This document shows positions 8,507 through 63,108 of a stretch of DNA of 64,000 nt, piece by piece. Location: positions 23,264 to 87,263 of IMG/VR virus record IMGVR_UViG_3300020576_005098. The stretch is one strand, 5' to 3'. The stretch's first letter is position 1. Each line of letters starts with the position of its first letter. Position numbers and translations under genes: made by a program. The notes under the pieces are model-generated. The model searched no databases and was not told the origin of the DNA. It was given only the letters and a program-made list of their open reading frames with translations. The stretch is from a virus. Lineage: Duplodnaviria; Caudoviricetes.

Positions 8507-8580
8507 TTTCCTTACAATCCTTCCTTGGATCCCTCTTCTGGTTATCTTCCACAAGGCAAGGATCATGCCAACGAGAAAAC

Positions 8581-35546: not shown

Positions 35547-35552
35547 TGCCTC

Positions 35553-35828: not shown

Positions 35829-35829
35829 A

Positions 35830-36388: not shown

Positions 36389-36400
36389 GAAGGAAGTAAC

Positions 36401-36526: not shown

Positions 36527-36546
36527 TTCTGAAGAAAGGAAAAGAG

Positions 36547-36684: not shown

Positions 36685-36874
36685 TCAATATGAGGCATTT
36701 CTACAAAAGGAGCAGAAGAAGATAAATTTGTTCGTTGAACAAACAATGCACTACGGGACTGGGTTTGTACCAAACAGTCCCCCCCACATTTTCTTCAAGA
36801 AAGTTTCGCTCAACATTCTATTTTGGCTTCTCTGGTTTCTCTTCCTTTTCTTTGTGGCATTTCTCGACAAATGA
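36671..36874 (+). CDS. small membrane protein (67 aa)
   Basis: C-terminal hydrophobic helix; coupled ORF. Confidence 0.55.
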   Translation: MSLIDQYEAFLQKEQKKINLFVEQTMHYGTGFVPNSPPHIFFKKVSLNILFWLLWFLFLFFVAFLDK

Positions 36875-37005
36875 AAAAAAACCATTCAGCACAGCAGAAA
36901 CCATTTCGGGATTTTGTTGATATGCTTGTGATTGCCGCCTTGGTTTTCACAATGCTCAAAGCAGCCCAAGTCCTGTTCCAGCTAACACACAACAGTCATC
37001 TATAA
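36871..37005 (+). CDS. small membrane peptide (44 aa)
   Basis: ATGA overlap; MLVIAALVFTMLKAAQVLF. Confidence 0.45.
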   Translation: MKKNHSAQQKPFRDFVDMLVIAALVFTMLKAAQVLFQLTHNSHL

Positions 37006-37739: not shown

Positions 37740-37740
37740 G

Positions 37741-39331: not shown

Positions 39332-39360
39332 GGTTGATGATGTAAATACCTGATCTCAAC

Positions 39361-40020: not shown

Positions 40021-40052
40021 TGGTTGTTTGAAGCGTAAATACTGGAGAAGTA

Positions 40053-41827: not shown

Positions 41828-41842
41828 GTCGTTGGTGATCTT

Positions 41843-42637: not shown

Positions 42638-42675
42638 GATTTACTTGGTCTAACTATCCCAAGGAGATAGATGAA

Positions 42676-43341
42676 ATGAAACTTGATAAGACATGGAAGA
42701 AGGTGGTTGCGTTCGCTTTAGGGTTTATTGCACTGGTTGCCAGCAGCTTTTTCATTGGCCATGCCATTCACCAAGCAACGCGACCAGATAATCACAATGA
42801 AGACTTCTATGGAGTAATCAGGGTGCGATTGGCTGGAGAAGGTTGGACGGCAGAAAGAAGAGAGGCAGCAACAAAAGCAATGGAAGAACTTGAAAGGCTT
42901 GGTCCTTCCTTCCTCTTTGTTGCAGACAATGCACCAGCCGAAATTAGAGGCATCCCCGTTTGGATTGATTCACAAATTCCAGAAGGTGAAGTTGGAGGGC
43001 ATTGCCCAGCAGGAGTTTACCAAACCTTTCCACATGACAACAACAGCGTAAGAATCACACTGTTCCCGTCTTGTATTCACTCAAATCTTGAATTCCAAGG
43101 AGCATTCATGCACGAGCTTGGTCATGCAATTGGGATGGATCACGTTTGTAGAACTGTTGGGGAGGATGGTGTTTGTAGCTCTGTTGGTTATGGTGTTTCA
43201 TTTATGAACCCCAACCTTGTTTACGACGAAGCTCTGCCAACAACCACTCAATTCTCCATTCCAATGTTGGAAGTCACCGAGTTGGATGTTAGAGAATATA
43301 GAATGGCTCGCGGCAGAGCTTCAATTCGCCCTGTTGAATGA
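42676..43341 (+). CDS. membrane-anchored metzincin (matrixin-like) zinc metalloprotease
   Basis: N-terminal TM helix; HELGHAIGMDH; downstream Met-turn (SFMNP). Confidence 0.8.
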   Translation: MKLDKTWKKVVAFALGFIALVASSFFIGHAIHQATRPDNHNEDFYGVIRVRLAGEGWTAERREAATKAMEELERLGPSFLFVADNAPAEIRGIPVWIDSQIPEGEVGGHCPAGVYQTFPHDNNSVRITLFPSCIHSNLEFQGAFMHELGHAIGMDHVCRTVGEDGVCSSVGYGVSFMNPNLVYDEALPTTTQFSIPMLEVTELDVREYRMARGRASIRPVE

Positions 43342-43343
43342 TC

Positions 43344-46300
43344 TCAGTCAGTCAGAACAAAAATCTTGTTCTGAAAACAAGAAAATCCAAACTCACTTTT
43401 ATCGAGAAGAGCAACGACAATATCGTTCGGTTTCAATCCAACCTCACCCTTCCAACCCCAAATAAAACAAGTGTGTTCCTTGTTCATCTCAGCAAACAGC
43501 TTCAGTTTCAAATAAAGCTTGCCGGTTTTGGTTGTTGCCAGTTCCGCAGATGAAACAACAGCCCAATAATTTCCCTTCTCTTCCCAATCGTCAATACTGG
43601 AAAAGCCAAGCTCATCCAGTTTGGCTTTAACGTTGGCAGAAACAATCAAGTCAAAATCAACACTTCCGGCAAGCTCCTTTGAAAACTCAAGCTTTTCGGC
43701 CAGAGTCCAATCAGGAACATCCTTGGTTGCTTCAATAGCGTCAAGCAAGGCTTTACCAACGTCGTTGTTTTTCTTCCGCGCCGAAGTTCTTTTCAGCATG
43801 TCGTACTGACCAATCAAAACATCATGAACTTGGCGATAGTTCTGGAAGAGTTTCCCCGGCCCAACACAATCCAATGAACCAAGAGCTTCGAGTTTTATGA
43901 GAGCACTCAGGGCACTCTTGTTAAACTTGCTGTGTCGCCAAGTTCCATCAGGGTTAACAAGAAGTTCCAGTGGATTGTTGTAAGGTCTAAACCGCAGAAT
44001 CTCTTGCGTTGCAGCTTTTCCAACATGAGCAATCCCACTAAATCCCGGAACCAGTGTTTTTGAAAGAGAAGGATGAGGGTTGATATCAAACCCAGAGTTG
44101 TTGATGTCTGGTTTTGCCAGTTTGTATCCAAGTCCTTTGGCTTCTTTCAATGCAATGGCCTTGGGATCTTCTTTTCCAGTTACCTTTCCTTTGCTAGTAG
44201 AACAGTAGTCGATATAAGTCGCAACCCACTCATCGGGGTAATATGTCAAGAACCAAGCGCACTGCCACGAAGTAATTGCATAACAAACTGCATGGGATTT
44301 GTTGAAGGAGTACGAAACGAGCTTTTCCATTTCATCAAAAACCTCGCCGGTAATCTCCTTGGAAATTCCATTCGTTGTGAAACACAACTCAGTAAACTTG
44401 TCACGAAGAGCATCACGATCAGCTTGTGCTTTTGCCTTGTTGCTAATGTCTTTCTTGGTAAACGCCTTTCTAATTCCGTCTGTTTCTTCCAGGGGAACAC
44501 CTGCGAGTTTGTGGTAAATCATCTGAAGCTGTTCTTGGAAGACCAAGAGTCCAGAAGTTTCAGCAAACACTTCTTTCAACAATGGATGTTTGTAACCAAC
44601 ACTCTTTGGGTCTGTCCTGTTCTTCAAGAACTTCTGATCAACCTTTGCTCCAAGAGGACCAGGACGGAAAATCGAGGTTGCAACCGCAATGTCAAGAATG
44701 CTTCGCGGCTTCATCTTCCGCATAAACTCTTGAGTGTTCGGTTGAACAAACTGGAATACTCCTGTGTACCTAGAATCCCAGAACACATTCTTGTAAACCT
44801 TCTCATCCGTCATTGGATTGTTGTCCGGATGAAGATTGTTGTCAAACCACGCTTTAATCTGAGCAAACGAAGGGTTTGGGTTTCCTTGTTTGATCAAGAT
44901 ACGACGAATACAGTTTTCAAACATGCGAAGAGTTCCAAGACCAAGGATGTCGAATTTCAGCAGCCCGAATTCTTCCAAGTGACGATAGTTTAATCCTTCT
45001 GGCCAAGGTGTCTGCAAATCACCGCCAGACTTGATCAAAGGCATTCCCTCACGAGAGTTTTCTGTGATGATCACACCTCCAGCATGACGGCTCAATCCTC
45101 TCATCTGCTTGAACAAAACCTTGATCGTTGTCTGGAATTCAGGAAACTCTTCCATCAAATTCCTAAACGTCTCTGAATTCTTCAGTGCTTCTTCGTAAGT
45201 CAGCACCCAAACCTGTCTATCAAACCCAGGTTCTTGCTTCGCAACAGCCAACGCTTCCGCTTCGATCTTCCCCGTTGCTGCATTGATCTTTTCAAATGGA
45301 AGACCATAAAGCCTTGCAACGTCCTTGATCAAACTCCTCAATTGGAGTTGAGCGAAGTTGGAAACAGGAATAACGTTCTCTTCTCCAAAGAACTGAATGA
45401 GAAGCTGGACTGCTCTGTCTCTATCCGAAAAGTCTGAGTCAATATCAGGAAAGGAGTTTTTCTTAAACTTTGTGAGGAACCGCTCGAATACCAATCCAAA
45501 CCTGATTGGATCGGTTTGTGTGAGGTTGAGAGTGTAAGACAATAGAGATCCAGCAGCCGAACCTCTTCCGTTTCCAATCAACATCTCATCGCCAACAACC
45601 TTCATGATCTTGTGATAAGTCAAGAAGTATTTCGAGAACTTCAGTTCCTTGATTGTTTCAAGTTCATGACGAAGCCTGGAAATATATTCCTGCTCCTTGG
45701 ACTTTCCAACACGGCGCAATCCTTCAATGGCAAGCCGCACCAATTCCTTGAAAGCAAGGTCATCCTCAGACATGCCCTCAGATCGCTCCAGGAGCTTTTC
45801 TAGCGGCTCCCGATCCACGATCCTGGCCAGGGATGGCAACTTGATTTTGCTGTCAATAGAAACGCTCCCAATTTGATTGTGGGCGATGTCATGAGTCAAC
45901 TCAATCGCATCACAAATCGTTTGATCATCATAAACCCCAGGATACAGCTTTTTGAGATCCAAGTAAGTGTCCCAAAGTTGCTCCGCGTTCTTTGGATAAA
46001 GTTGACACTTCAACTGAGAAACATCTTCTGGAAGAGTGCTCGGATTAACACTTCCCTTTGTCTTGGAAGCCCAAGCCATCGCCTTGTAAATCTCACGTTC
46101 ACGCCAGTGCTCTGGGCGAGAGTAGTGCGAGTCAACAGTAACAACCATCTTCAAGCCAGTACGCTTCGCCAACTCCATCAAGTGATAATTCACAAGATGT
46201 TGCGCGCCAAGTTTGTTGAACTGAAGCTCCAGATAAAAATTCTCTGGACCACCAAGAACCTCAACAAACTTATCAGAAACCTCTTTCAACTCTTTCTGAA

Positions 46301-46979
46301 TAACCTCCAGGTTGTTGCTGTTTACAGTCCAATCTTCCCAAGGAACGGTTTGGTCTTGGTGGTTGAAAACAATCCGAGACAATCTGCCACCAAGACATGC
46401 ACTGGAAGCAATGACGTTGCCTTTGGCATGACGACGAAGAATGTCAAAGTCCATGCGTGGATAACGATACAAACCACTGATGTAACTCTCTGAAACCATC
46501 TGGAACAGAGACTTCAAACCGTCATTGTTTTTTGGAAGCAAAACCAAGTGACTTCGCTGAGTGATGGGATCAGAAAACTTTGAAGTTCCCTTCGATTCAC
46601 TCTCAACCTCCACAACCGTTCCACCATCTTCCGATTCTTCTGGGGCAACCTCCTCGGCCTTCCCAGAAGCCAAAGCTTTTTCAAGCCGCTTGGTTTCTTT
46701 CTGCTCTTGAAGAAGAACCTTCCAATCTAAAAGAGAATCAATGAAATAAGCCTCGACACCAGGAATGGCCTTGAAGTTCACACCCTTTCCAACCAGTTTT
46801 TTGGCGTGAAGTTGTTGGTGCGAAATACCATTCATAGAGCCGTGGTCTGTCAGAGCAATACCATCCATGCCATTGCTCAAAGCAAATTCAATGTGCTCTT
46901 GTGGGAGACCAATAGCATCCCCAATCGAAAAGCAGGAATGAGCATGAAGCCCAACAAAGTGTCTGGGTTTGATCGTCAT
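43344..46979 (-). CDS. dnaE: DNA polymerase III alpha subunit
   Basis: PHP HAHS..S..D, LTDHG; GRGSAAGS; FERFL; PDIDSDF; SRHAGG; KFDILGL; RPGP; FQEQ; YSFNKSHA. Confidence 0.97.
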   Translation of the reverse strand: MTIKPRHFVGLHAHSCFSIGDAIGLPQEHIEFALSNGMDGIALTDHGSMNGISHQQLHAKKLVGKGVNFKAIPGVEAYFIDSLLDWKVLLQEQKETKRLEKALASGKAEEVAPEESEDGGTVVEVESESKGTSKFSDPITQRSHLVLLPKNNDGLKSLFQMVSESYISGLYRYPRMDFDILRRHAKGNVIASSACLGGRLSRIVFNHQDQTVPWEDWTVNSNNLEVIQKELKEVSDKFVEVLGGPENFYLELQFNKLGAQHLVNYHLMELAKRTGLKMVVTVDSHYSRPEHWREREIYKAMAWASKTKGSVNPSTLPEDVSQLKCQLYPKNAEQLWDTYLDLKKLYPGVYDDQTICDAIELTHDIAHNQIGSVSIDSKIKLPSLARIVDREPLEKLLERSEGMSEDDLAFKELVRLAIEGLRRVGKSKEQEYISRLRHELETIKELKFSKYFLTYHKIMKVVGDEMLIGNGRGSAAGSLLSYTLNLTQTDPIRFGLVFERFLTKFKKNSFPDIDSDFSDRDRAVQLLIQFFGEENVIPVSNFAQLQLRSLIKDVARLYGLPFEKINAATGKIEAEALAVAKQEPGFDRQVWVLTYEEALKNSETFRNLMEEFPEFQTTIKVLFKQMRGLSRHAGGVIITENSREGMPLIKSGGDLQTPWPEGLNYRHLEEFGLLKFDILGLGTLRMFENCIRRILIKQGNPNPSFAQIKAWFDNNLHPDNNPMTDEKVYKNVFWDSRYTGVFQFVQPNTQEFMRKMKPRSILDIAVATSIFRPGPLGAKVDQKFLKNRTDPKSVGYKHPLLKEVFAETSGLLVFQEQLQMIYHKLAGVPLEETDGIRKAFTKKDISNKAKAQADRDALRDKFTELCFTTNGISKEITGEVFDEMEKLVSYSFNKSHAVCYAITSWQCAWFLTYYPDEWVATYIDYCSTSKGKVTGKEDPKAIALKEAKGLGYKLAKPDINNSGFDINPHPSLSKTLVPGFSGIAHVGKAATQEILRFRPYNNPLELLVNPDGTWRHSKFNKSALSALIKLEALGSLDCVGPGKLFQNYRQVHDVLIGQYDMLKRTSARKKNNDVGKALLDAIEATKDVPDWTLAEKLEFSKELAGSVDFDLIVSANVKAKLDELGFSSIDDWEEKGNYWAVVSSAELATTKTGKLYLKLKLFAEMNKEHTCFIWGWKGEVGLKPNDIVVALLDKSEFGFSCFQNKIFVLTD

Positions 46980-47179
46980 TTGATAGGTTCAATCCTGTGT
47001 TGATGAAGAGAGTGAACTTCCTTCCTCAGAAGCTCAACATCTTTGCGGAGTTGTGCAACATCTTTAATCAGGCTTTTAACCTCAGAGATGCAATCTTTGA
47101 TTTGTGCCAAGTTTTCCTTGGCATAGCTCAGGAGAGCTTGAACACCTTGAAAAACTTGTGTTTCATGCTTTGTAGACAT
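46976..47179 (-). CDS. small coiled-coil protein
   Basis: Start ATG 47179 (MSTKHETQ), coupled to dnaE. Confidence 0.55.
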   Translation of the reverse strand: MSTKHETQVFQGVQALLSYAKENLAQIKDCISEVKSLIKDVAQLRKDVELLRKEVHSLHQHRIEPIK

Positions 47180-53917: not shown

Positions 53918-54211
53918 TCAGAGGTTGTAAGAGGAATGAACAGCGTTGACAACCTTGATCATTTCTTCCGCACAGTTGTAGTAGTTGTCAATGGCAATCA
54001 ACATCGGCATAGTTCGACCGCTCATCTCGGCACGATGGGCCTGCCCTTCGGCAAGGTCACGGATAAACTTTCTTGCTTCCCCTGGAATGCTGGGATCATT
54101 CATTCCCATCACCTCCGCTGCTTCATCCAAGAGAGCATCGAGATCATTGGGGTAATGAAAAACACCATTGGCAACACGGCTGTGAAGTTCGTCGGCGGTG
54201 GTTTTGGTCAT
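53918..54211 (-). CDS. hypothetical protein
   Basis: 97 aa, first gene after composite promoter at 54262. Confidence 0.6.
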   Translation of the reverse strand: MTKTTADELHSRVANGVFHYPNDLDALLDEAAEVMGMNDPSIPGEARKFIRDLAEGQAHRAEMSGRTMPMLIAIDNYYNCAEEMIKVVNAVHSSYNL

Positions 54212-54261: not shown

Positions 54262-54325
54262 ACTCTACCAGATCGACCTCTTCCCATCAAGAACTTCTTT
54301 CGAGCCTCCTTGGCATGATCCTTGC
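54262..54325. promoter_or_regulatory. composite element 1: minus-strand sigma70-type promoter + plus-strand sigma54-like box
   Basis: TTGATG-N17-TAGAGT (minus); TGGCATGATCCTTGC (plus). Confidence 0.75.
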
Positions 54326-54396
54326 TGGGAGAATCAGAGGTCGATGCCTGGATTGATATAGTTGAAAGGTTGTGCAAGCGTTGAGAGGGATCTAGC

Positions 54397-54456
54397 CACC
54401 CCTATCAAAGACCAATCACCCCTATCAAAGACCAATCACCCCTATCAAAGACCAAT
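54397..54456. repeat. 3 x 20-bp perfect tandem repeat
   Basis: CACCCCTATCAAAGACCAAT x3 in noncoding DNA. Confidence 0.95.
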
Positions 54457-54720
54457 CTCCCCCCTGTTTCCCCTTGTTTGAATAACTTTCTTTGTTCAAG
54501 ACTATCAATCCGATTATCTCAATCACTTCACGCAGTTTTCATCTTTTCCTTGTTTCACAGTGTTTATTGAAACTAAGGTAAAAAACCGTGTTCCAGAGCA
54601 CCTGAGAGCGGTTTTGATTTTCGTGAAAGATGAAAACCGTGTTCTGGGGGCTCTGGGAGCGGTTTTTGTTTGATGTGTGGGAATATAGGCGACCTGAGTG
54701 TTTTTTGCAAAACTGGCGTT

Positions 54721-55068
54721 CTAGGGCATCTGGAGGGCCTTTTTGGCTGAGTGGATGAGGGAGGAGATGTTGTTGGTTCCGACAGGGTTTTGGGAATGGA
54801 TGCTGAAGTTTGGGATGGGGAGGTTATTGTCGATGCAGTGGTAGAGGAAGGGGTGGAGGAACTCGATTACGGTTGTTGTTTTACCATTGATATCTCGTCC
54901 GAGGTCATGGTCGAAGGAGATGAATGTTGGGTGAGTTTTGTAAGCGATGTCAATGCACTCTTGGACGGATCGAGCGATGACGGGTTGTCCGTGTTTGGCG
55001 ATGATGGATTGGAGGTAGTCTTGTGGGATGTAGGAGGGATCACGCTCATCGTCGATGAAGAGGAACAT
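54721..55068 (-). CDS. cyclic-phosphate processing receiver domain protein
   Basis: LFIDDERDP, ISFDHDLG, HSQNPVG. Confidence 0.8.
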   Translation of the reverse strand: MFLFIDDERDPSYIPQDYLQSIIAKHGQPVIARSVQECIDIAYKTHPTFISFDHDLGRDINGKTTTVIEFLHPFLYHCIDNNLPIPNFSIHSQNPVGTNNISSLIHSAKKALQMP

Positions 55069-55178
55069 TGTGTTAGTTTCCTTGTTGGTTGTTTTTGTGT
55101 TTCAGCGGCCCTGTTTTGCTGCTGCTTGTCGTTTGGCTTCTATATCTTGGTTTGTTGAGGGTGTCAAGAAAACGATCT

Positions 55179-55496
55179 TCACCCTTCGAGGTTGATGTAA
55201 GCGCCGGGGTGCTTCTGTTCCAAATCAACGAGAAGGTTCAGCAGAGCAAACTCAGCGCCCCTCCACGCGCCAATGCGTTCGATCACATCGTTCACTTCGA
55301 CAAGAGAGAAGCTGTTGTCACCCCAGGTGAAGCTGTTGTAAAAGAAGTTGTAAATGCTATCCGAGTCTTCGGTGTCTACACCGTCTTTACGGAACTGGTC
55401 GATGATGGTGGAGAGGGGGAGAACCTTGACAGAGAGGTCGAAGAGATTGCTGAGTTCGGTCACGTTCTTGCGAGCGGCGGTGGTGTTCGTCTTCAT
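55179..55496 (-). CDS. hypothetical protein (FTWGD family)
   Basis: SFTWGDNSFSLV...YINLE. Confidence 0.65.
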   Translation of the reverse strand: MKTNTTAARKNVTELSNLFDLSVKVLPLSTIIDQFRKDGVDTEDSDSIYNFFYNSFTWGDNSFSLVEVNDVIERIGAWRGAEFALLNLLVDLEQKHPGAYINLEG

Positions 55497-55502
55497 ATTT
55501 AG

Positions 55503-55566
55503 ACCTTACCAGACCTTGCTAGATCAATCAAGGACTAAATCTGAGTCCTCTTGGCATGAGTCTTGC
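55503..55566. promoter_or_regulatory. composite element 2
   Basis: TTGATT-N17-TAAGGT (minus); TGGCATGAGTCTTGC (plus). Confidence 0.7.
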
Positions 55567-55797
55567 AAGGTTGGCCGCCTTGGATTTCTCTTGGCCGGGA
55601 ATCGCCCCAGGATGCTTTTTAACGGCCTGGGAGGTTTGGGATGTGTCGGAGGTCGTTGGGAGGATTCAAGGGCCTGGAAGGTGCCTTGCTGAGTCAGGAA
55701 ATGGCGTATGTGATTTGGAGAGCGAGCATGAGGATGAGGGAAGAGATTGTGATGAGGAGAAGGAGGGATGTTACACGCATTAGAGTTTTTTTTGGAT

Positions 55798-56136
55798 TTA
55801 CTGACGCTGGAACAGGAAGAGTTGGCAGCCGAGGTTGTTTGTGCCTGAAACTGGACCCTTCAGTGTGTAACCTTCGCGGAGAAGGCGCTCGGTTCGTTGG
55901 GTGATGAAACTGTTTTGGTAGTTACAGTAGTATTCAACACGAACGTTTCCCATCACACAAGAAGTCTGATCATCCGAACACCTGGGAGAAGGAGTAGCAA
56001 CAACAGCAGAAGCAGTGTTTGTGGAAGTATGTCGAGGATTCGGTTCGGGCTTGGCGGAACCGACAAGGATTCCAGCGCAAAAACAACCCATTGCAGTAAG
56101 CATTGCGATCAAAAAGTTTGCTTGAGCGTTGTTCAT
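55798..56136 (-). CDS. putative secreted/membrane protein
   Basis: N-terminal hydrophobic helix, Cys pairs. Confidence 0.55.
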   Translation of the reverse strand: MNNAQANFLIAMLTAMGCFCAGILVGSAKPEPNPRHTSTNTASAVVATPSPRCSDDQTSCVMGNVRVEYYCNYQNSFITQRTERLLREGYTLKGPVSGTNNLGCQLFLFQRQ

Positions 56137-56142
56137 TGTTGT

Positions 56143-56454
56143 TTATCTGTTGGTGTTCTTGAAGAGATGAAAACAGGGAAGAGGACCTTCCAAGTCCAAA
56201 ATGTTCAACCTCTGGAGAAGTTCTGCAAACTTTGTTCCTTTCCAGTTTTTAATCACGAATCCAGCTTTCGGATCCAAGAAACTTTTGTCTTCAACATCCA
56301 GAAGAAGGCAAAGTCGAGTTTTGGTATCGTTGCGAATGAGAGACAGTGGAGTCAGGTTGTTTGTCAGAACAATCTCAACCTTGCCACCCTTCACTTCCTT
56401 TGTGAAAGTGTTGTCTTGTTGGGAAAAGCCTTCAGAAAGCAGTTGGTTTCGCAT
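56143..56454 (-). CDS. hypothetical protein
   Basis: Start ATG 56454 (MRNQLL) with GAGGAG RBS. Confidence 0.55.
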   Translation of the reverse strand: MRNQLLSEGFSQQDNTFTKEVKGGKVEIVLTNNLTPLSLIRNDTKTRLCLLLDVEDKSFLDPKAGFVIKNWKGTKFAELLQRLNILDLEGPLPCFHLFKNTNR

Positions 56455-56462
56455 GGTTTGTT

Positions 56463-56645
56463 TTACTCCTCCGATGAATCGGGTTCCTCGTCCAAAGGCT
56501 TGCGGGACTGTTCCATTCCGCAGCACTCGCAACGTCCGTGCTCACGGTTGCCGAGGCAACCCCAGGACATTACCATTCCATCGCACACAAGGCAACCCCA
56601 AAACTCGTTGTCCACGTCGTAATCACGAATGCTGTGTCGGTGCAT
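56463..56645 (-). CDS. small zinc-finger protein
   Basis: CLVC...CECCG. Confidence 0.5.
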   Translation of the reverse strand: MHRHSIRDYDVDNEFWGCLVCDGMVMSWGCLGNREHGRCECCGMEQSRKPLDEEPDSSEE

Positions 56646-56689
56646 GGCTTTACCTGTTTTGGAAGAGATTGGAAGAAGGGGAGAAAAGA

Positions 56690-56884
56690 TCAGTCGAGGA
56701 GGTCGTTGAGGAAGGCCATCTTGGGGTTGAAGCGATCCTTGTTTCGCTTGCTGCGCTTGTCCTTCATGGGACCAGCGGAGTTCCGCATGTGAGCTGCCAT
56801 GGCGAGGTGGTTTCGGGTGTGGTAATCGCTCATGGTCTTGGGGTTGGTGTCGTCGTGCCCGTTGTGCTTCTTGCTCTTGCTCAT
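56690..56884 (-). CDS. small basic hypothetical protein
   Basis: Start ATG 56884 (MSKSKKH). Confidence 0.5.
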   Translation of the reverse strand: MSKSKKHNGHDDTNPKTMSDYHTRNHLAMAAHMRNSAGPMKDKRSKRNKDRFNPKMAFLNDLLD

Positions 56885-56918
56885 GATGTTTTTGATCCTG
56901 TCGATTTGTGATGCGTTA

Positions 56919-57143
56919 TTATCGGGGGAAAACCACGTCGAGATTGTGAACAAATGACAGAAGCTGTTCAAGCTTCCTGGGAGTGATGTTGCCGTTGGTG
57001 CAGGTAATGTGCTCAAAAACAACGGAGCCATCAAGATCAAAACGAACAGCGGCGTCTGAGCCGAAAGGCCCCCTTTCACACACTTCCCAATCGCCACACT
57101 CAGACAAACGGAAAAAAACTACAACGCTGTTCTTCTTGCCCAT
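56919..57143 (-). CDS. hypothetical protein
   Basis: Start ATG 57143 with GGAAGGAAG RBS after promoter. Confidence 0.55.
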   Translation of the reverse strand: MGKKNSVVVFFRLSECGDWEVCERGPFGSDAAVRFDLDGSVVFEHITCTNGNITPRKLEQLLSFVHNLDVVFPR

Positions 57144-57171
57144 GATGTTTCTTCCTTCCGGGGATGATCTG

Positions 57172-57235
57172 ACTCTATCAGGTTTGGTCGCTGGAGTCAA
57201 CGAGTTTCTCTCGTTGGTCTTGGTACAAGGCTTGC
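57172..57235. promoter_or_regulatory. composite element 3
   Basis: TTGACT-N17-TAGAGT (minus); TGGTACAAGGCTTGC (plus). Confidence 0.75.
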
Positions 57236-57248
57236 AGGGACGTGGTTT

Positions 57249-57521
57249 TTACTCCTCTGGGAGTTCCCACTGGTCATGGTCGCAGTAATCACACGGGCGA
57301 CGCTGCCCTGCGCCGTTGACAACAACGTAAGTGTCACCACACATTGAGCACTCTGCCTCTTCTTCCTCTTCCTGCTCCTCAACAACCATTTCCAGAAAGG
57401 TTTGGAGTTTGTTATCAAGACCCTGGTCGCTGATGAACTCCAACAATAGACCAAGTTGGGTGGTTTCATTCCACCCTTGGCTGTCCACGAACTTCCGCAA
57501 AACATCCTTGGCGTTTTCCAT
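57249..57521 (-). CDS. hypothetical protein with C-terminal Zn ribbon
   Basis: Start ATG 57521; CSMC...CDYC. Confidence 0.6.
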   Translation of the reverse strand: MENAKDVLRKFVDSQGWNETTQLGLLLEFISDQGLDNKLQTFLEMVVEEQEEEEEAECSMCGDTYVVVNGAGQRRPCDYCDHDQWELPEE

Positions 57522-57558
57522 GTTGTTTGATTCCTTGATGAGAAGTGTTGTTTGTGAT

Positions 57559-57777
57559 TCAGTAGAGGACGATGCCCAATCCCATACTGTCCCAGCGGGT
57601 TTCAGCCAGCTTGGGACACGCCTTTCGCGCATCGTTCAGGTCATAACGGCTGTCGAGAACGATTGCATGAGTCGTTGCGCCGAACATTCCACGACCGGAG
57701 TAATCTTCCCGGAGCGAAACCTCAAAACCCTTCTCGATGAGAATGTCGAAACAATCCTTGGCGTCGGTTGAGTTCAT
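57559..57777 (-). CDS. hypothetical protein
   Basis: REDYSGRGMFG...TRWDSMGLGIVLY. Confidence 0.65.
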   Translation of the reverse strand: MNSTDAKDCFDILIEKGFEVSLREDYSGRGMFGATTHAIVLDSRYDLNDARKACPKLAETRWDSMGLGIVLY

Positions 57778-57809
57778 TTTGTTTCTCTTTCTGTCTCGGT
57801 GATGATCTG

Positions 57810-57873
57810 ACTCTACCAGACCGAGCCGGGAGAATCAACGAGTTTCTCTGAGGCTGCTTGGCACGAAGCTTGC
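57810..57873. promoter_or_regulatory. composite element 4
   Basis: TTGATT-N17-TAGAGT (minus); TGGCACGAAGCTTGC (plus, perfect sigma54 consensus). Confidence 0.8.
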
Positions 57874-58113
57874 TCAGAAGGTGTAGGGCTTTGCCCGAAG
57901 AAACTGCTTCTCCCTGTCCCAAGGGCTTCCGACAGTCAGCCACCTGCCAAACTCCACACGCAACCACTTATCGAACACAAGGGTTTCGCTTCGGGTTCCG
58001 ATGCGAATGTGAACCTCGGAAGGAGTGATCTTGACGATCACACCCTGATAATGGTCACAGTCATTCGGAACAACATCGAAATCAACCACGTCGCCAACCT
58101 GGATCTCGTTCAT
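57874..58113 (-). CDS. hypothetical protein
   Basis: Start ATG 58113 (MNEIQVGDVV). Confidence 0.55.
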   Translation of the reverse strand: MNEIQVGDVVDFDVVPNDCDHYQGVIVKITPSEVHIRIGTRSETLVFDKWLRVEFGRWLTVGSPWDREKQFLRAKPYTF

Positions 58114-58146
58114 TTTGTTTGTTCCTGGTTTGTAGATTTGTTTGTG

Positions 58147-58217
58147 GCCCAACTGCAAGGATTCGAACCTTGACTTACTTGCGCGCTGTGTCGTGCTTCC
58201 GTTACACCACAGTTGGG
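58147..58217 (-). ncRNA. tRNA-like RNA without anticodon helix
   Basis: CCCAACTG/CAGTTGGG acceptor, GTG-TAACGGAAG-CAC D arm, CAAGG-TTCGAAT-CCTTG T arm. Confidence 0.6.
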
Positions 58218-58268
58218 GATGATTGCCGGGAGTTTTTATCAGAAGATTCCCGGCAATCTTGTTAGAAG

Positions 58269-58712
58269 TCAGTCGAGGACGACGGTTTCGCCTTCGGTGA
58301 TGATCACCTCATCCGTCACCGCAGCAGGCGCCGTCTCGGTCGTTTCCTCGACGGCGGGGCCGGAAGTGCTCGTGCCGGGCTTGCGACCACGCTTCCGAGG
58401 CACGAGGCAACCGTGCTTCTCAGCGAGGGTGCGAATCATCGCACCAGTGCAGTTGTAAAGCTCCCCAATGTCGTTGTAAGACAGGCTCGGGTCCGAGCAC
58501 AGCGCCCGGAAATCCGCAAGATCATCCTCCACCACGCTGCTGATGGTCTTGCGCCGCGGCTTGGCGTTGATCGCCCCCTCGACACGAGCCCAGACCTCAT
58601 CGGTCATCTGACCAAAAATGCCCTCCAGGGCGATACGAACAGGGTTCATCACAACAGTCTCCTCGGTGGTGGTGGTGGCAACGACGGTGGAATCGGTGGT
58701 GTTCGTGGTCAT
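58269..58712 (-). CDS. putative DNA-binding protein (HTH-like + AT-hook-like)
   Basis: LSYNDIGELYNCTGAMIRTLA; PRKRGRKPG. Confidence 0.6.
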   Translation of the reverse strand: MTTNTTDSTVVATTTTEETVVMNPVRIALEGIFGQMTDEVWARVEGAINAKPRRKTISSVVEDDLADFRALCSDPSLSYNDIGELYNCTGAMIRTLAEKHGCLVPRKRGRKPGTSTSGPAVEETTETAPAAVTDEVIITEGETVVLD

Positions 58713-58759
58713 TTTGCAGTCTCCTTTGTTTGTGTGTGGTTCGTTCCTGGGATGTTTTT

Positions 58760-58823
58760 ACTCTATCAGACCTTCTCTAACCGGTCAAGGAGTTCTTTTG
58801 AGTCTCCTTGGCATGAATCTTGC
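58760..58823. promoter_or_regulatory. composite element 5
   Basis: TTGACC-N17-TAGAGT (minus); TGGCATGAATCTTGC (plus). Confidence 0.78.
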
Positions 58824-58928
58824 TAGAAGTTCTCCAGATCGAGGCAACCGCTGGTGCAAACGAAAAGACACAGAGCCGTGAAGAGCGTCTCGATCATGTT
58901 GTCCTCCTTGCCGTCTTCCGATGATCTG

Positions 58929-58992
58929 ACTCTATCAGACCTTCTCAAACCGATCAAGGAGTTCTTTTGAGGCTCCTTGGCACAACCTTTGC
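58929..58992. promoter_or_regulatory. composite element 6
   Basis: TTGATC-N17-TAGAGT (minus); TGGCACAACCTTTGC (plus). Confidence 0.75.
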
Positions 58993-59096
58993 AGGCTGCA
59001 TCTTTCGGCATGGGCCTTACAACGGGCAACCAGGATTTTGAGAATCGCTCCAGGAGCCTTTTCTGTGACAGGGAGCAGTGGTCTTGGGTGTGAGGT

Positions 59097-59139
59097 CGTC
59101 AGAAATGCCGAAGGCCCCGGAAGGGGCCTTCTCGTGTCA
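59097..59139. terminator. hairpin repeat copy 1, possible terminator
   Basis: GAAGGCCCC-GGAA-GGGGCCTTC within a 43-bp unit repeated at 63057. Confidence 0.55.
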
Positions 59140-59374
59140 GGAACGAAGTGCTGGGAGGTTGGGTCACTTGACGCTGGGATATTGCTGCTGGAAGTTATCG
59201 AGCATTTCCTGAAGATTCTTTTGAACTTCATCATAATGCTCGGGGGCACTTTCTCGAAGACGTTCCAAGCCTTCACCGAAAACACGTTTCATGTCATCAA
59301 ACATGGCCTGGAGTTCTTCGGGAGAATGTTTGTGTTCGTTCATGGCTTAACCTTTCCAGCAAACTTCATTCGTT

Positions 59375-59686
59375 TTACCCTCTGTTTACGATCTTGTCAT
59401 CACGAATGTCAAAGCCGTTTGCACTTGCCCAAAGGTCGCGGGTTGGAATGCGGGCACCGCCAGTGTAATCGCCCTTGGGAATAGTGGTTTCATTACCACA
59501 CTCACAACAACGAAAAATCGTCTTGACTTCGTTATACGGTTCGCCCCTCATGTCGAACTGCAAGGATTGCGTTTGATAAAGGTCACACCATTCAATCAAC
59601 AGCGTGGCACCACAACCATCCTCCCCAGCGCACTTGTATTCTTTCGACCAACTCTTTCGGCCTGGACCCTTTTGAATGACCTTCAT
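59375..59686 (-). CDS. Zn-binding hypothetical protein
   Basis: C...CG...CCECG. Confidence 0.6.
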   Translation of the reverse strand: MKVIQKGPGRKSWSKEYKCAGEDGCGATLLIEWCDLYQTQSLQFDMRGEPYNEVKTIFRCCECGNETTIPKGDYTGGARIPTRDLWASANGFDIRDDKIVNRG

Positions 59687-59694
59687 GATTTTGT

Positions 59695-59916
59695 TTACTC
59701 CTCCACTTCCATTTCGACAACGCTATACCCGTCGTATCCAGCAAACTGCTTGTGCTCGCACGGAGCATCGTTGCAGTGTTCGTAACGAGGATGCTCACGA
59801 AGAAGGTCGCACAAAGCCTTGGCCTTCTTTTCGGAGCGAAAAGCCTTGAGGTTCCTGTCCGACTCGTAATCAATGTGACCCATCACGATCCAAACCTTGT
59901 CGGCGTTGTTGCTCAT
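59695..59916 (-). CDS. hypothetical protein
   Basis: 73 aa. Confidence 0.6.
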   Translation of the reverse strand: MSNNADKVWIVMGHIDYESDRNLKAFRSEKKAKALCDLLREHPRYEHCNDAPCEHKQFAGYDGYSVVEMEVEE

Positions 59917-59944
59917 GGTGTTTTCTTTCGTTGAAAGTTGATTT

Positions 59945-60020
59945 TGGTGGAACCCTCGGGAGTCGAACCCGAAACCACCCGGTTAAAAGCCGGATGCTCT
60001 GCCAATTGAGCTAGGGTTCC
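59945..60020 (-). tRNA. tRNA-Lys(TTT)
   Basis: Reverse complement GGAACCC...TCCGG-CTTTTAA-CCGGG...GGGTTCC-A-CCA. Confidence 0.93.
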
Positions 60021-60244
60021 AATGAACTTGAGAAACCATTTATTTCTCAAGTTCAAACTAACCAAGTATACGTTTGCATCCATCAGGTTTGCATTATTCA
60101 AGGCGTCGGTGGTTTACATGACCCCACCCTCTTTTCTACATTGTTTCTCTTGTTAGAATCAACCACACAACCACAGGTTTTTAGTTTTGCGTCTTGAAGG
60201 TTTGCTTTTGTTTACACTACATCATTGGAACTTCACTTTCTGTT

Positions 60245-60514
60245 TCAAGGAGTTTTGGTAAACGCCCAGGGAGAAGGAAGCGGCTTCGGAAGGTGTGGAT
60301 TGTGTTCTGCAATACGCTCACGCCGAAGCCAAACAGCCTTGGTTGGAATGTCGCTCGGCTCGGCGTGTCGAGCGCACTTCTCACAGATTGCAACCTGCTG
60401 GCCAGGAGTACGATCCTCCAACATGGTCCAAAACGGAGTTTGCTTGCGGCAGATGCAACACTTCTCAGAACCACACACGGAAAGGGACTCCGGCTCACGC
60501 TCAATCTCAATCAT
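60245..60514 (-). CDS. small zinc-binding protein
   Basis: CCICR...CEKCA. Confidence 0.55.
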   Translation of the reverse strand: MIEIEREPESLSVCGSEKCCICRKQTPFWTMLEDRTPGQQVAICEKCARHAEPSDIPTKAVWLRRERIAEHNPHLPKPLPSPWAFTKTP

Positions 60515-60543
60515 TTTCTTACCTCTCGTCTTGGGATGGTCTG

Positions 60544-60608
60544 ACTCTACCAGATCAGGCTGCTGGAGTCAAGGAGTTTCTCGGAGGTGCTCTTGGCATG
60601 GTCTTTGC
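60544..60608. promoter_or_regulatory. composite element 7
   Basis: TTGACT-N17-TAGAGT (minus); TGGCATGGTCTTTGC (plus). Confidence 0.75.
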
Positions 60609-60618
60609 AGGATCCTTG

Positions 60619-61194
60619 TCAGCCGATAAAGTTGATGTTCAGAGTCACATTCTTTCCAAGAGTCAATCCGTGCTTCGCAAGCACAGCGGAAACTTCTTCT
60701 TCTTCCCCCAAAATCATTCCATGAGCAACAGGATCAAAACCTTCAGGAAACTTCGTTTCTTTGTCGAAGGTTGCATACCTCAGGTCTGCACCCTCCAGGT
60801 CTGCATCCGTCAGGTCTACACTCCTCAGGTCTGCACCCTCCAGGATTGCATTCGTCAGGTTTGCATCCTTCAGGCTTGCACCCGAAAGGGTTGCATACCC
60901 CAGGTCTGCACCCTCCAGGTCTGCACCCTCCAGGTCTGCACCCTCCAGGATTGCATACCTCAGGATTGCATTCCTCAGGATTGCATTCCTCAGGATTGCA
61001 TTCCTCAGGATTGCATTCCTCAGGTCTGCACCCGAAAGGTTCGCGTTCCACAGGTCTGCATTCACCAGGATTGCATTCCTCAGGATTGCATACCTCAGGT
61101 CTGCACCCGTCAGGATTGCCCTTTGACCCTTCGGGTCATTTTCAAGCCAGAGCTTGTGAAGACGGAGAACCTGCTTGATTTCGTTCTGATTCAT
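60619..61194 (-). CDS. pentapeptide repeat protein
   Basis: HKLWLE...G.RA then A(D/I/N)L(R/E)(N/G/Y) repeats. Confidence 0.92.
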   Translation of the reverse strand: MNQNEIKQVLRLHKLWLENDPKGQRAILTGADLRYAILRNAILVNADLWNANLSGADLRNAILRNAILRNAILRNAILRYAILEGADLEGADLEGADLGYATLSGASLKDANLTNAILEGADLRSVDLTDADLEGADLRYATFDKETKFPEGFDPVAHGMILGEEEEVSAVLAKHGLTLGKNVTLNINFIG

Positions 61195-61227
61195 GATGGG
61201 TCTTCCTTGGCTCTTGAAGTTGATCTG

Positions 61228-61291
61228 ATCTTATCAGAGGTTGCCGGGGGAGTCAAGAACTAAATCTGAGTCAGGTTGGCATGGAGATTGC
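61228..61291. promoter_or_regulatory. composite element 8
   Basis: TTGACT-N17-TAAGAT (minus); TGGCATGGAGATTGC (plus). Confidence 0.75.
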
Positions 61292-61697
61292 AAGAAGGTC
61301 GGTTGGAGGGCTCGCTGGTGATGGTGCAGGAAGTGTGAGTGCAAGACATCTCAATCTTGTTTGCAACACCAGAAGCGGGAGAAGGACTTCCAGCATAACA
61401 TTCCAATGGCAAACGATTGTTGCGATGTTCACATCGAACAGAAACCCGAGAAGAACGAAAGTGGTTTGCCGCTGTCTGAACAACAAGAGACCTTGCTTGT
61501 TCTCCCAACGTTTCTGACTTTACTTCGTCGGCGCAAATGCCCACCATGATGAATGTGAAAACGACGAAGACAATCACAATGATGTGAACAGCATCGCTCG
61601 CATGATTATCTTTCACCACAGGGAAAAGAGCAATGCGTTTCCAGAGAGGATCGCGCTTTGGAGTCGGAGGAACCCATGCTTCTCGAAAAGGAGTCAT
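61260..61697 (-). CDS. single-pass membrane protein with Cys-rich C-terminus
   Basis: Start ATG 61697 (MTPFREAW); TM IIVIVFVVFTFIMVGI. Confidence 0.55.
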   Translation of the reverse strand: MTPFREAWVPPTPKRDPLWKRIALFPVVKDNHASDAVHIIVIVFVVFTFIMVGICADEVKSETLGEQARSLVVQTAANHFRSSRVSVRCEHRNNRLPLECYAGSPSPASGVANKIEMSCTHTSCTITSEPSNRPSCNLHANLTQI

Positions 61698-61716
61698 TTT
61701 GGTTTTCCTGTTTGAA

Positions 61717-62046
61717 TCAAGTGTTGTTGGAGAGATTGATGAAAAAATCACCCCACTCCCCTGCTTCCTCCAGTGCATCCACCAAAAGGTTGAGAGGAGA
61801 GTCGGGGTTGGTGTCGTTGGTGTTTTCAACGATCTGACAAACAAGAGAAGTGAAAGAATCACCCTCTACCAGACATAGAGGAACCTTGATGTGGGTGAGC
61901 ACTCCGTATTCATCTTCCATCGCATCCACCAAAAGATCTCGAAAGAGATTGGAGTAATCCCCGACATCTTTGAGAAACTGGAGAATGCCGGAAAACTCCA
62001 CAACTCTGTATTCGGATGTGAGAGTGTGAATGGTGAGTGTCTTCAT
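61717..62046 (-). CDS. hypothetical protein (FTWGD-family-like)
   Basis: Start ATG 62046; EGDSFTSLV...FFINLS. Confidence 0.55.
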   Translation of the reverse strand: MKTLTIHTLTSEYRVVEFSGILQFLKDVGDYSNLFRDLLVDAMEDEYGVLTHIKVPLCLVEGDSFTSLVCQIVENTNDTNPDSPLNLLVDALEEAGEWGDFFINLSNNT

Positions 62047-62047
62047 G

Positions 62048-62344
62048 TTACCGCTCCAGGTCGATGAAAATGGGATCGCCGTGGTTGTTGCTGATGAGAT
62101 CATTCAAGGCGAGGAGTAGCCCATTACAGGGATCGCCAGGAAACGTGCTGGGCGGAAAGTATTCCAAAAAGGAACCGATGTGAACGAGAGTGTGATCGGT
62201 GTCACCCCAAGTGAAACCTTCACCAATGGCTTCGGTCAAGAGGTTGTAAACCTCACCATCACGATCTCCGTTTGCCGTCAGGAAGGCCGCGATGGTGCTC
62301 AGGTTGAGAATGTGGAAGCTCTTGGTCTGGGTGGGGAGGTTCAT
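62048..62344 (-). CDS. hypothetical protein (FTWGD family)
   Basis: GFTWGDTDHTLV...IFIDLE. Confidence 0.65.
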   Translation of the reverse strand: MNLPTQTKSFHILNLSTIAAFLTANGDRDGEVYNLLTEAIGEGFTWGDTDHTLVHIGSFLEYFPPSTFPGDPCNGLLLALNDLISNNHGDPIFIDLER

Positions 62345-62377
62345 GGTTTTGTTTCCTGTCCGTCTTGGGATGATCTG

Positions 62378-62441
62378 ACTCTATCAGATCATCCTGCTGT
62401 AGTCAACGAGTTGTTTTTGTGGGAGTTGGCACGGGGCTTGC
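62378..62441. promoter_or_regulatory. composite element 9
   Basis: TTGACT-N17-TAGAGT (minus); TGGCACGGGGCTTGC (plus). Confidence 0.8.
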
Positions 62442-62482
62442 AGCCCCGCACTTTTCCAAAGATGTACTGAAAGAGAGATTTA

Positions 62483-62854
62483 TCAAGAAGGGAATGCGCG
62501 AAGAGCGTTTCGGAGATAACGGATCCGGATTTCCTGCTTGCAAATCCTTTCCCTGCATTCCTTCGCATACGCTTCAGCCTTCGTGGCTTGAGCGTAAAGT
62601 TCATCGGCAGAGTTGCCGAGAATGTTCTCGTGCTCCTCGTAACGCTTCTTTCGAGCAGCGGACACGACTTCGGGAAGATTCTCACCAGCGTTCTCCAACA
62701 GGCAAAGCTCTACAAACCCCGGAGGGGTTGGGGCGTTTACGATGCGCTGAGCAGCCTTTTGGATGAAAGCGCGATCAAGTGTGCTGATGCCCTCCAGCAC
62801 ACACCCCAGACACAAATCAACAAACAAAGAAATCGCTTCGTTGGAGAGGTTCAT
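62483..62854 (-). CDS. hypothetical protein
   Basis: Start ATG 62854 (MNLSNEA). Confidence 0.6.
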   Translation of the reverse strand: MNLSNEAISLFVDLCLGCVLEGISTLDRAFIQKAAQRIVNAPTPPGFVELCLLENAGENLPEVVSAARKKRYEEHENILGNSADELYAQATKAEAYAKECRERICKQEIRIRYLRNALRAFPS

Positions 62855-62915
62855 GGTTTTGCTTCCTTTTCTTGTCTGAGAAGATGCCGAGTTGTTGCCC
62901 TCTCTTGATGATCTG

Positions 62916-62979
62916 ACTCTATCAGAGGTTGCTGGAGGAGTCAACGACTAAATCTGAGTCGGGTTGGCATGAAGGTTGC
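62916..62979. promoter_or_regulatory. composite element 10
   Basis: TTGACT-N17-TAGAGT (minus); TGGCATGAAGGTTGC (plus). Confidence 0.78.
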
Positions 62980-63056
62980 ATGACAGCAGCCACATCTTGA
63001 GAATGGTTCGAGGATGGTTTTTAAGGGTCGGGGAAAACCCGGAACGGGTCAGAGAT

Positions 63057-63099
63057 CGTCAGAAATGCCGAAGGCCCCAGAAGGGGCCTTCTCGTGTCA
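63057..63099. terminator. hairpin repeat copy 2, possible terminator
   Basis: One mismatch to 59097-59139. Confidence 0.55.
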
Positions 63100-63108
63100 A
63101 GGATCGTG

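Follow-up and report, generated by a model that had tools for sequence, protein, structure and literature searches.

In T4-type phages, small ORFan genes are shuffled by way of promoter-early stem-loop (PeSL) cassettes (PMC2839356, PMC4122927). Each is a repeated composite motif of up to ~100 bp around a consensus sigma70 early promoter (PMC2839356, PMC4122927), reaching from the upstream gene's stop codon as far as the Shine-Dalgarno sequence and ATG of the next gene. The early cassettes described here are built in the same way and, like PeSLs, lie between small ORFan genes where the genome is plastic, in a phage whose portal and terminase are T4-like. However, a PeSL combines its promoter with an AT-rich stretch upstream and a stem-loop that is stable and acts as terminator, whereas here only about every second copy has a stem-loop, a weak one; what is conserved upstream instead is a sigma54-type box of 17 bp, whose distance is fixed and helically phased. 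Divergent sigma70/sigma54 promoter pairs also exist in bacteria (pspF-pspA, norR-norVW, and prpR-prpBCDE), where ~150-250 bp of intergenic space carries activator sites and the sigma70 gene encodes the activator. Here, the two promoter types likewise point apart, but the 10-42 bp between their sites could not accommodate an enhancer, and the pair recurs ten times. A literature search found no paper describing such sigma54-type boxes behind phage early promoters, and the new aspect is their fixed back-to-back, helically phased layout. The reading that we favor, with a probability of about 0.4, is that of PeSL-like early promoter cassettes with a predicted built-in, backward-facing docking site for the host sigma54 polymerase.

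The window analyzed is a 64,000-nucleotide stretch of an uncultured freshwater jumbo phage, known as a fragment in IMG/VR (completeness, 34%), and encodes T4-like portal and terminase, DnaE, GroEL, 33 tRNAs, and a tmRNA. Among 24 ORFs of its early region, two have a Pfam match, none of them to a DNA-binding domain, and for four a homologue exists in the two distant relatives described below. The tmRNA tag begins ANDNA, resembling the Polyangiaceae tag and the AND- tag of Burkholderiales and differing from that of Flavobacteriales, which may give a weak hint to the host. The cultured relative closest to the phage infects Microcystis (portal identity, 39%); this, and rpoN being only a candidate in the host, count against a sigma54 reading. 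The original prediction also took the boxes to indicate that an RpoN regulon matters to the host, for which the present data give no support. The anatomy that it described, sigma70 promoters back-to-back with sigma54-type boxes in fixed geometry, stands, and the box is conserved in relatives.

All ten back-to-back elements are present between 54262 and 62979, with their promoters on the minus strand (Table 1). Each cassette, of ~64 bp, joins a strong minus-strand sigma70 promoter (TTGAY, 17 nt, TGnTAGAGT across the ten copies, with the extended TG before the -10 in all of them) to an upstream box that reads TTGGYAYR-N4-TTGCW on the plus strand. As had been proposed, the gap between box and -35 is fixed (20 nt in nine copies, 21 nt in the one at 60544), GG and (T)GC lie exactly 10 nt apart in every cassette, as in the RpoN consensus, and the boxes are constant where the spacers are not: the ten-copy alignment shows invariant GCAA, T-CCAA, TTGA, and CTG-N-TA...T at a mean column identity of 65%, with the box interior and both spacers variable. 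The full box, YTGGYAYR-N4-TTGCW, is found with zero mismatches in all ten cassettes and has no match in a reversed-sequence control; it includes sigma54-consensus positions that the prediction had not used (the T preceding TGG, the R following TGGYAY, and the A/T following TTGC). The composite pattern GCAA-N5-RTRCCA-N18..24-TTGAY-N16..18-TARRRT has ten minus-strand matches versus 0.00 expected (100 shuffles), and the box alone (TGGYAY-N5-TTGC) has 11 matches in the window versus 0.43 expected, counts that overstate independence because copies inside one phage are related by descent. Six of the ten promoters were also recovered by an independent consensus scan, and a minus-strand ORF starts 7-62 nt downstream of every one. 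The box is centered near -63 of the sigma70 promoter, and the predicted sigma70 and sigma54-type start sites are ~82 bp apart. All 12 boxes of the complete 87-kb record are oriented against the local genes, and every copy is directed into the 3' end of a coding gene, with no evident product there.

Table 1. Early cassettes and associated features (positions in the window; ORFs listed are those driven by the cassette promoter)
Feature	Position	Strand	Remarks
Early cassette 1	54262..54325	-	-10 at 54262-54267, -35 at 54285-54290; box 54311-54325 (+); ORF 53918-54211
Early cassette 2	55503..55566	-	box 55552-55566 (+); ORFs 55179-55496 and 54721-55068 (cREC_REC domain); -10 is TAAGGT, 6 nt ahead of ATG at 55496; transcript looks leaderless
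Early cassette 3	57172..57235	-	box 57221-57235 (+), sole TGGTA variant among the ten; ORFs 56919-57143 through 55798-56136; 7-bp hairpin between box and -35
Early cassette 4	57810..57873	-	box 57859-57873 (+), adjoining stop codon of upstream ORF 57874-58113; ORFs 57559-57777 and 57249-57521
Early cassette 5	58760..58823	-	box 58809-58823 (+), overlapping stop codon of 24-aa ORF; ORF 58269-58712
Early cassette 6	58929..58992	-	box 58978-58992 (+); 24-aa hydrophobic ORF 58823-58897; downstream of terminator hairpin 59110-59131
Early cassette 7	60544..60608	-	box 60594-60608 (+); ORF 60245-60514, tRNA-Lys (59945-60020), three small ORFs
Early cassette 8	61228..61291	-	box 61277-61291 (+), within 3' end of upstream ORF (ORF end 61260); pentapeptide-repeat protein 60619-61194
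Early cassette 9	62378..62441	-	box 62427-62441 (+), TTGC in loop of GGGGCT/AGCCCC hairpin; ORFs 62048-62344, 61717-62049, and 61260-61700
Early cassette 10	62916..62979	-	box 62965-62979 (+); ORF 62483-62854; downstream of terminator hairpin 63070-63091
Solitary eleventh box	8556..8570	-	15-mer identical to that of cassette 1; no sigma70 promoter; 10 nt before in-frame ATG of a plus-strand ORF; opposes local gene
Terminator hairpin	59110..59131	-	9-bp GC stem, ~-23 kcal/mol, z = -3.5; ends unit upstream of cassette 6; part of ~45-nt block repeated at 63056-63100
Terminator hairpin, second copy	63070..63091	-	upstream of cassette 10

The box overlaps, abuts, or sits at most 41 nt from the upstream stop codon in seven of the ten cassettes; of the other three, two follow a terminator and one follows a noncoding repeat region. 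Spacers form subfamilies, such as the three copies with GACTCAGATTTAGTC, and some boxes of the relative G005 belong to long palindromes. Together with the likeness to PeSLs as shufflers of small ORFan genes in T4-type phages (PMC2839356, PMC4122927), these features would suit a box that no protein reads, being either the boundary of a mobile promoter cassette, i.e., a PeSL-like recombination target, or an RNA element at the 3' end of the gene upstream. We regard this as very unlikely. A recombination target would stay alike throughout, but here only the sigma54-informative positions are fixed and the interior is free, and the same short motif persists between phages with almost no common early genes. 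Moreover, an adjacent hairpin of 5-7 bp between box and -35 is found in only about five of ten cassettes, with weak z scores of -0.9 to -2.8 (5-bp stems near the weak end) and none in the others, and two boxes would rarely be transcribed because they lie downstream of strong terminators, the only two within the 9-kb early region.

Two distant relatives, G005 and G011:C147, both with early promoter clusters, contain 45 and 31 boxes, compared to 2 and 3 in controls, and these are concentrated in their early regions. Their DnaE proteins are 53% and 59% identical to that of the present phage, with which they have few genes and almost no early genes in common. Since the box is conserved and enriched in both, it is a selected element and not a product of chance. 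No close relative possessing the early region was found, those with 71% DnaE identity being fragments without early promoter clusters. The flanks of the G005 boxes follow the same pattern (Y before TGG in 19/20, R after TGGYAY in 18/20, and W after TTGC in 14/20), and one-mismatch variants in the relatives never alter GG, the T before GG, or the TG of TTGC. TGGTA, found in half of the G005 boxes, is as common there as TGGCA, and seven G005 variants lack the C of GC.

The distance between box and -35 in the relatives is 10, 20, 31, or 42 nt. Across the three phages, gaps of 10, 19-21, 30-32, and 41-42 nt place the box centers at about -53, -63, -74, and -85, which keeps them in phase with the -35 along the helix (best period, 10.3 bp; Rayleigh R = 0.75, p ~6e-6); on unique gap values only, p is 5e-4. 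These one-turn steps suggest a protein held on one DNA face relative to RNA polymerase. Class I sites, such as that of CRP at lac, keep helical register with the promoter, and the position near -62 and the one-turn steps are alike in both. This phasing is the classic signature of class I activators, which contact the alpha-CTD, and it speaks against a sigma54 reading and for the main rival to sigma54 docking, namely, that the box is the operator of another phage or host DNA-binding protein, e.g., a tandem winged-helix protein on the TGCAA/TGCCA repeat, which, from class I-type positions, would switch the early sigma70 promoters on or, later, off, its sigma54 likeness being mimicry or coincidence. 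The box consensus is itself a direct repeat of these half-sites, 11 bp apart, readable by a tandem-binding regulator; the frequency of TGGTA in G005 and the constant tie between box orientation and promoter in the present phage also fit an operator, as does an early protein of 147 aa with an HTH-like stretch and an RKRGRKPG stretch (58269-58712).

We judge the operator possible but doubtful. Neither G005 nor G011:C147 has a homologue of the 147-aa protein, which lacks any Pfam DNA-binding domain, and no DNA-binding protein common to the early regions of the three phages was found, which leaves the operator without a conserved candidate and favors a conserved host reader. An activator of the very first promoters would need injection or host supply, and an unrelated motif would hardly match all informative sigma54 positions at the exact spacing. 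Unlike the CRP site, the box is a direct repeat and no palindrome, and no cognate activator was found. In G011:C147, moreover, boxes also stand alone, form convergent pairs, or face genes as likely promoters, suggesting that they act as autonomous units and not only as sigma70-promoter appendages.

Base-specific contacts of sigma54 are made at GG, the T opposite A, and TGC (PMC3844500); the freely varying C/T of the box is not among them. In Salmonella, many sigma54 sites lie inside genes or in antisense orientation and have been proposed to act by repression, by interference, or through antisense RNA, and the phage boxes share their GG and TGC elements, exact spacing, and flanking consensus (PMC3844500). 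However, Salmonella has ~70 such sites per whole genome versus ten in 9 kb here, and each phage box, a putative sigma54 site, is locked back-to-back to a sigma70 promoter. Unlike bacterial sigma54 promoters, the boxes of the present phage have neither an activator gene in the sequenced fragment nor a gene downstream, and an enhancer is missing at 80-150 bp upstream; that space is occupied by the sigma70 promoter and the early-gene start, and no enhancer-like shared palindrome was found near the boxes. The original prediction had called for a search for rpoN or enhancer-binding homologs, and neither gene was found in the phage fragments: Sigma54_DBD had no match in those searched, nor did Sigma54_activat, the enhancer-binding AAA+ domain, in G000, G001, G004, G005, and G006 (11-44% complete).

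From the motif, its geometry, conservation, and phasing, we infer that the host sigma54 holoenzyme docks at the box as a closed complex and, because no enhancer is near, would remain parked there, back-to-back with the sigma70 polymerase on the same helix face. So placed, it would delimit the cassette, stand head-on against read-through arriving from the cassette upstream, and occupy the alpha-CTD region of the early promoter, thus tuning it. As phage copies multiply, sigma54 may be drawn off host genes, and antisense firing from the box would occur only with an activator acting from solution. Among the roles offered by the original prediction (host-state sensor, sigma54 sponge, antisense shut-off, or site for a mimicking activator), the analysis favors no single one. 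The ten perfect boxes, the fit of flanks that had not been searched for, the spared GG and TG in variants, the sense boxes in G011:C147, the placement of boxes near upstream stop codons or behind terminators, and the precedent of the Salmonella sites all argue for sigma54. A cyanophage relative, Mel-JY01, has no boxes, which also speaks for sigma54; its host phylum, to our knowledge, has no rpoN, and a Synechococcus control gave no match to the sigma54 DNA-binding domain. Against sigma54 stand the TGGTA boxes and the seven C-less variants of G005, the lack of any sigma54, activator, or enhancer found, the direction of 12/12 boxes into coding 3' ends, and the existence, at 33000 and 35518 in the window, of like promoters that work with no box. 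These box-free promoters, the helical phasing across relatives, and the likeness to PeSLs go beyond the original prediction.

A further possibility is that the boxes are working sigma54 promoters fired together by a solution-acting activator, supplied by the host or encoded in the two thirds of the phage genome that lie outside the known sequence. Upstream early genes would then be silenced by antisense transcription and head-on collisions, and the next gene class would be turned on from the sense boxes of relatives. As a -24/-12 site the box is perfect, it is always antisense to genes in the present phage, and four boxes in G011:C147 are sense-oriented 58-98 nt before ORF starts, at least one of them (near 33669) with just a poor sigma70-type match in between. 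Activators without a DNA-binding domain can fire any closed complex (PMC3844500), and only 34% of the genome is in hand. Nevertheless, we consider working promoters unlikely: the AAA+ activator gene is absent from the five related fragments, no conserved plus-strand product or terminator pattern was seen behind the boxes, plus-strand terminator-like sites are not enriched (12 versus 13.5 expected), a hairpin covers the predicted plus-strand start in two copies, and such promoters need no phasing with the -35.

Early transcription in phages is thought to use the housekeeping sigma70 polymerase of the host, later redirected by phage proteins. Alone among bacterial sigma factors, sigma54 waits at its DNA site until an ATPase signals, and we know of almost no role for it in phage development. 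More tentatively still, a clade of freshwater jumbo phages may use the host sigma54 polymerase as a parked, DNA-bound cassette part that serves as insulator, host-state tuner, and sigma54 sink and, once an activator appears, in antisense shut-off. If true, this would be a mode of exploiting a host sigma factor without phage precedent in the literature searched. If another protein reads the boxes, they would be operators of an early regulator that mimics a sigma54 site, and in both cases the 64-bp cassette offers a module, compact and portable, for tests in Escherichia coli with ordinary reporters. If sigma54 reads them, they would offer a natural case of two holoenzymes back-to-back in helical register, and an abundant group of lake phages would have a host signaling route wired into every early cassette, linking host physiology to the onset of infection in a way that can be tested.

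In this phage, we found ten copies of a cassette combining a minus-strand sigma70 promoter with a backward-facing sigma54-type −24/−12-like box, all on the minus strand and each where the original prediction had placed a back-to-back promoter, although none is expected. The box is also enriched on its own, with 11 matches in the window versus 0.43 expected. Read along the minus strand, the order is CTGCAAG, 5-6 variable bases, TGCCAAG, an A-rich spacer, TTGAC, 17 nt and CTG-N-TAGAGT-CAGATCATC, with 20 nt (21 in one copy) separating the CCA of the box from the −35 and a minus-strand ORF start 7-62 nt beyond each promoter. The promoter is a near-consensus sigma70 type with an extended −10, and the box lies at about −71 to −55, taking the −35 at its usual position. 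All ten cassette boxes read YTGGYAYR-N4-TTGCW on the plus strand with zero mismatches, and the reversed-sequence control has no site with one mismatch or fewer to this consensus. Two plus-strand promoters of the same type lack a box; the box is therefore a feature of the early cassette cluster and not something that such a promoter needs in itself.

Coordinates of features in the window and of features that stand beside the cassettes
Feature	Window position	Remarks
T4-like portal, T4-like large terminase, GroEL-type chaperonin, SbcCD-like nuclease, primase, DnaE-type polymerase		Encoded in the window
sigma70-family factor	22552-23352 and 23349-23633	Two overlapping ORFs
KTSC-domain small proteins	25304-25702, 34112-34327	Two proteins
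tRNA block	26896-34058	33 tRNA genes and a tmRNA (ARAGORN); two tRNAs with an anticodon unreadable by ARAGORN
tmRNA	28934-29325	Tag ANDNAVPAFALAA
tRNA with anticodon TTA	33745-33821	Possible ochre suppressor
Promoters without box	33000, 35518	Plus strand
Cassettes (starts)	54262, 55503, 57172, 57810, 58760, 58929, 60544, 61228, 62378, 62916	Minus strand
Tandem repeat	54397-54456	Three perfect copies of a 20-bp unit (CACCCCTATCAAAGACCAAT)
Direct repeats	54581-54745	Two of ~45 nt; each forms a hairpin, AAAACCG...CGGTTTT, flanked on either side by runs of A and T; fold of 54570-54680, z = -5.8
Leaderless layout in cassette 55503	55494-55508	−10 TAAGGT six bases ahead of ATG; once in this phage
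tRNA-like sequence	58150-58225	Minus strand, inside early unit 5; good acceptor stem, T-arm (GGTTCGAATCC), CCA; odd anticodon region; called by neither ARAGORN nor Rfam
Conserved blocks round both strong terminator hairpins	59096-59140, 63056-63100	~45 nt, exceeding the need of the hairpin alone

The genes driven by the cassettes are small and mostly without known domains, except for a pentapeptide-repeat protein and a receiver-like cREC_REC domain (Pfam). Seven of the ten boxes overlap the stop codon of the preceding gene, directly adjoin it or stand no more than 41 nt away; a strong terminator hairpin precedes two others, and cassette 54262 follows a 400-bp non-coding stretch with repeats. 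The tandem units and neighboring hairpins of this stretch could be iterons beside bidirectional terminators. This arrangement resembles the promoter-early stem-loop (PeSL) cassettes of T4-type phages, in which an early sigma70 promoter and a stem-loop recur as a module between ORFan genes (PMC2839356, PMC4122927), and it shares their layout in a plastic early region. In contrast to PeSLs, the stem-loop is not the conserved partner here: a weak hairpin of 5-7 bp between box and −35 forms in only about half of the copies, so a covarying hairpin was rejected as the true conserved feature. That no protein reads the box, which would then be a boundary or an RNA element, is highly improbable.

The window is the right-hand 64 kb of an 87,263-bp IMG/VR record with a CheckV completeness of 34%, so the genome is probably ~250 kb in size. 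One further tRNA lies in the early region, outside the 33-tRNA block. A single 357-aa ORF (64033-65106) in the relative G011:C147 matches both pieces of the sigma70-family factor; the two pieces could result from a split of the gene, from a frameshift or from an error in sequencing. This contig also carries a tmRNA (81503-81857). Across the whole record, GTAC (68 sites, where base composition predicts 336) and CTAG (61 versus 336) are strongly avoided and GATC is not, which may reflect a host restriction system.

There is no close cultured phage, the best portal match being Microcystis phage Mel-JY01 (39%). A related DnaE is encoded by ten IMG/VR contigs, one of which, with 71% identity, stems from a freshwater virome of Lake Soyang (PMC7553992); most of these contigs are fragments that contain no early promoter cluster, which makes their lack of boxes uninformative. 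Two distant relatives carry boxes. G005, of 86.5 kb (DnaE 53%), has 26 exact boxes versus 0 in the control and 45 versus 2 with up to one mismatch, clustered at 35-45 kb, mostly on one strand and facing against the genes. G011:C147 (158 kb; portal 48%, DnaE 59%), a contig from the bin of a Flavobacteriales MAG, carries 20 of the 37 exact boxes of that MAG and 31 with up to one mismatch, versus 3 in the control, mostly in its first 37 kb. The three phages have few proteins in common and almost no early genes, yet the box is kept; the only families common to all three are KTSC, DnaE and a pentapeptide-repeat protein. Two G005 boxes (11456-11530 and 13089-13160 of L041, the G005 stretch 28000-47000) form the outer arm of long palindromes, whose partner arm covaries with the box (ATGCC/GGCAT versus ATACCA/TGGTAT). 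Leaderless-looking early genes recur in G005 (e.g., L041 9691-9790), with an extra conserved motif (GCGGCAAACA) between box and −35. Beyond these relatives, no box enrichment is seen in the distant phages examined, namely the cyanophage Mel-JY01, Flavobacterium phage immuto, RsoM2USA, RM378, S-CAM1, LR756508 and LR756511; a collection-wide scan with the strict composite pattern found no further viral contig, and the relaxed pattern gave single hits only among the matches listed, consistent with chance.

In both relatives, too, the box stands behind sigma70 promoters and faces away, at other distances from the −35: 10, 19, 20, 30 and 31 nt in G011:C147, and 31, 32 (four times), 41, 42, 60, 65 and 70 nt in G005. 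With a single entry for this phage, the 18 distances from the three phages are strongly periodic (Rayleigh R 0.75, p ~6e-6 at 10.5 bp; best period 10.3 bp), also on unique distance values (p ~5e-4), although these p-values are generous because copies within one phage are not independent. The box is held on a single helix face relative to the promoter, with centers near −53, −63, −74 and −85. A class I activator would be expected to produce such phasing, and the box consensus is at the same time a direct repeat, TGCAA/TGCCA with a spacing of one turn, that could be recognized by a regulator binding in tandem. Both points count against sigma54 and suit a different protein as reader of the repeat, a reading somewhat less probable than sigma54. 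No DNA-binding protein common to the three early regions was found, which counts for sigma54. The phage's own sigma70-family factor was ruled out as the reader, since the 5-6-nt gap between half-sites misfits −35/−10 recognition.

For sigma54, the box matches every informative position and the exact spacing. Consensus positions outside the predicted pattern agree as well: TGG follows a T, TGGYAY is followed by a purine, and TTGC by A or T. In the relatives, no site with one mismatch departs from the consensus at GG, at the T just before it or at the TG of TTGC. The base-specific contacts described for sigma54 are with GG, with TGC and with the T that pairs with the A of TGGCA, and they do not include the freely varying C/T of the box (PMC3844500). 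Moreover, some boxes of G011:C147 converge in pairs, and others stand in sense orientation 58-98 nt ahead of an ORF start, where they look like promoters in their own right. Bacterial genomes contain many intragenic or antisense sigma54 sites, with interference roles proposed (PMC3844500). Against sigma54, there is no space for an enhancer, all 12 boxes in this phage point into gene 3' ends, and half of the boxes in G005 have TGGTA. The search for an rpoN or enhancer-binding ATPase homolog, proposed with the original prediction, came out negative in every fragment. That the boxes are antisense sigma54 promoters, actively fired, is improbable.

Clues to the host are weak. A degenerate full tmRNA-tag pattern, which demanded a TAA stop where the phage has TGA, matched none of 185,579 species genomes, and BLAST of the tmRNA with five genomes yielded no more than matches of 17-21 nt. 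Many Pseudomonadota have a GroEL 41-45% identical to that of the phage, which is not discriminating, and HIP1 is not enriched. Portal and DnaE searches retrieve only one MAG-binned phage contig, G011:C147, whose Flavobacteriales label is doubtful as a host call because its promoters follow the classical TTGATA-N17-TAGTAT pattern and the MAG itself has another tmRNA tag (DNTSYALAA). Unlike the latter, the phage tag starts with ANDNA and so resembles ANDNAMILAA from Polyangiaceae and an AND- tag from a Burkholderiales genome, a likeness that would be a weak pointer to the host. Tags beginning with AND are typical of the Pseudomonadota, most of which encode rpoN.

The literature searched describes both PeSLs and sigma54 sites of bacteria, but we found in it no description of sigma54-type sites in phage early cassettes. 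We conclude that selection acts on the element in a clade of uncultured jumbo phages from freshwater. Tentatively, with a probability of about 0.4, it is a PeSL-like early cassette that carries, as its upstream partner, a putative backward-facing site where host sigma54 polymerase would dock and would act mainly while parked there.
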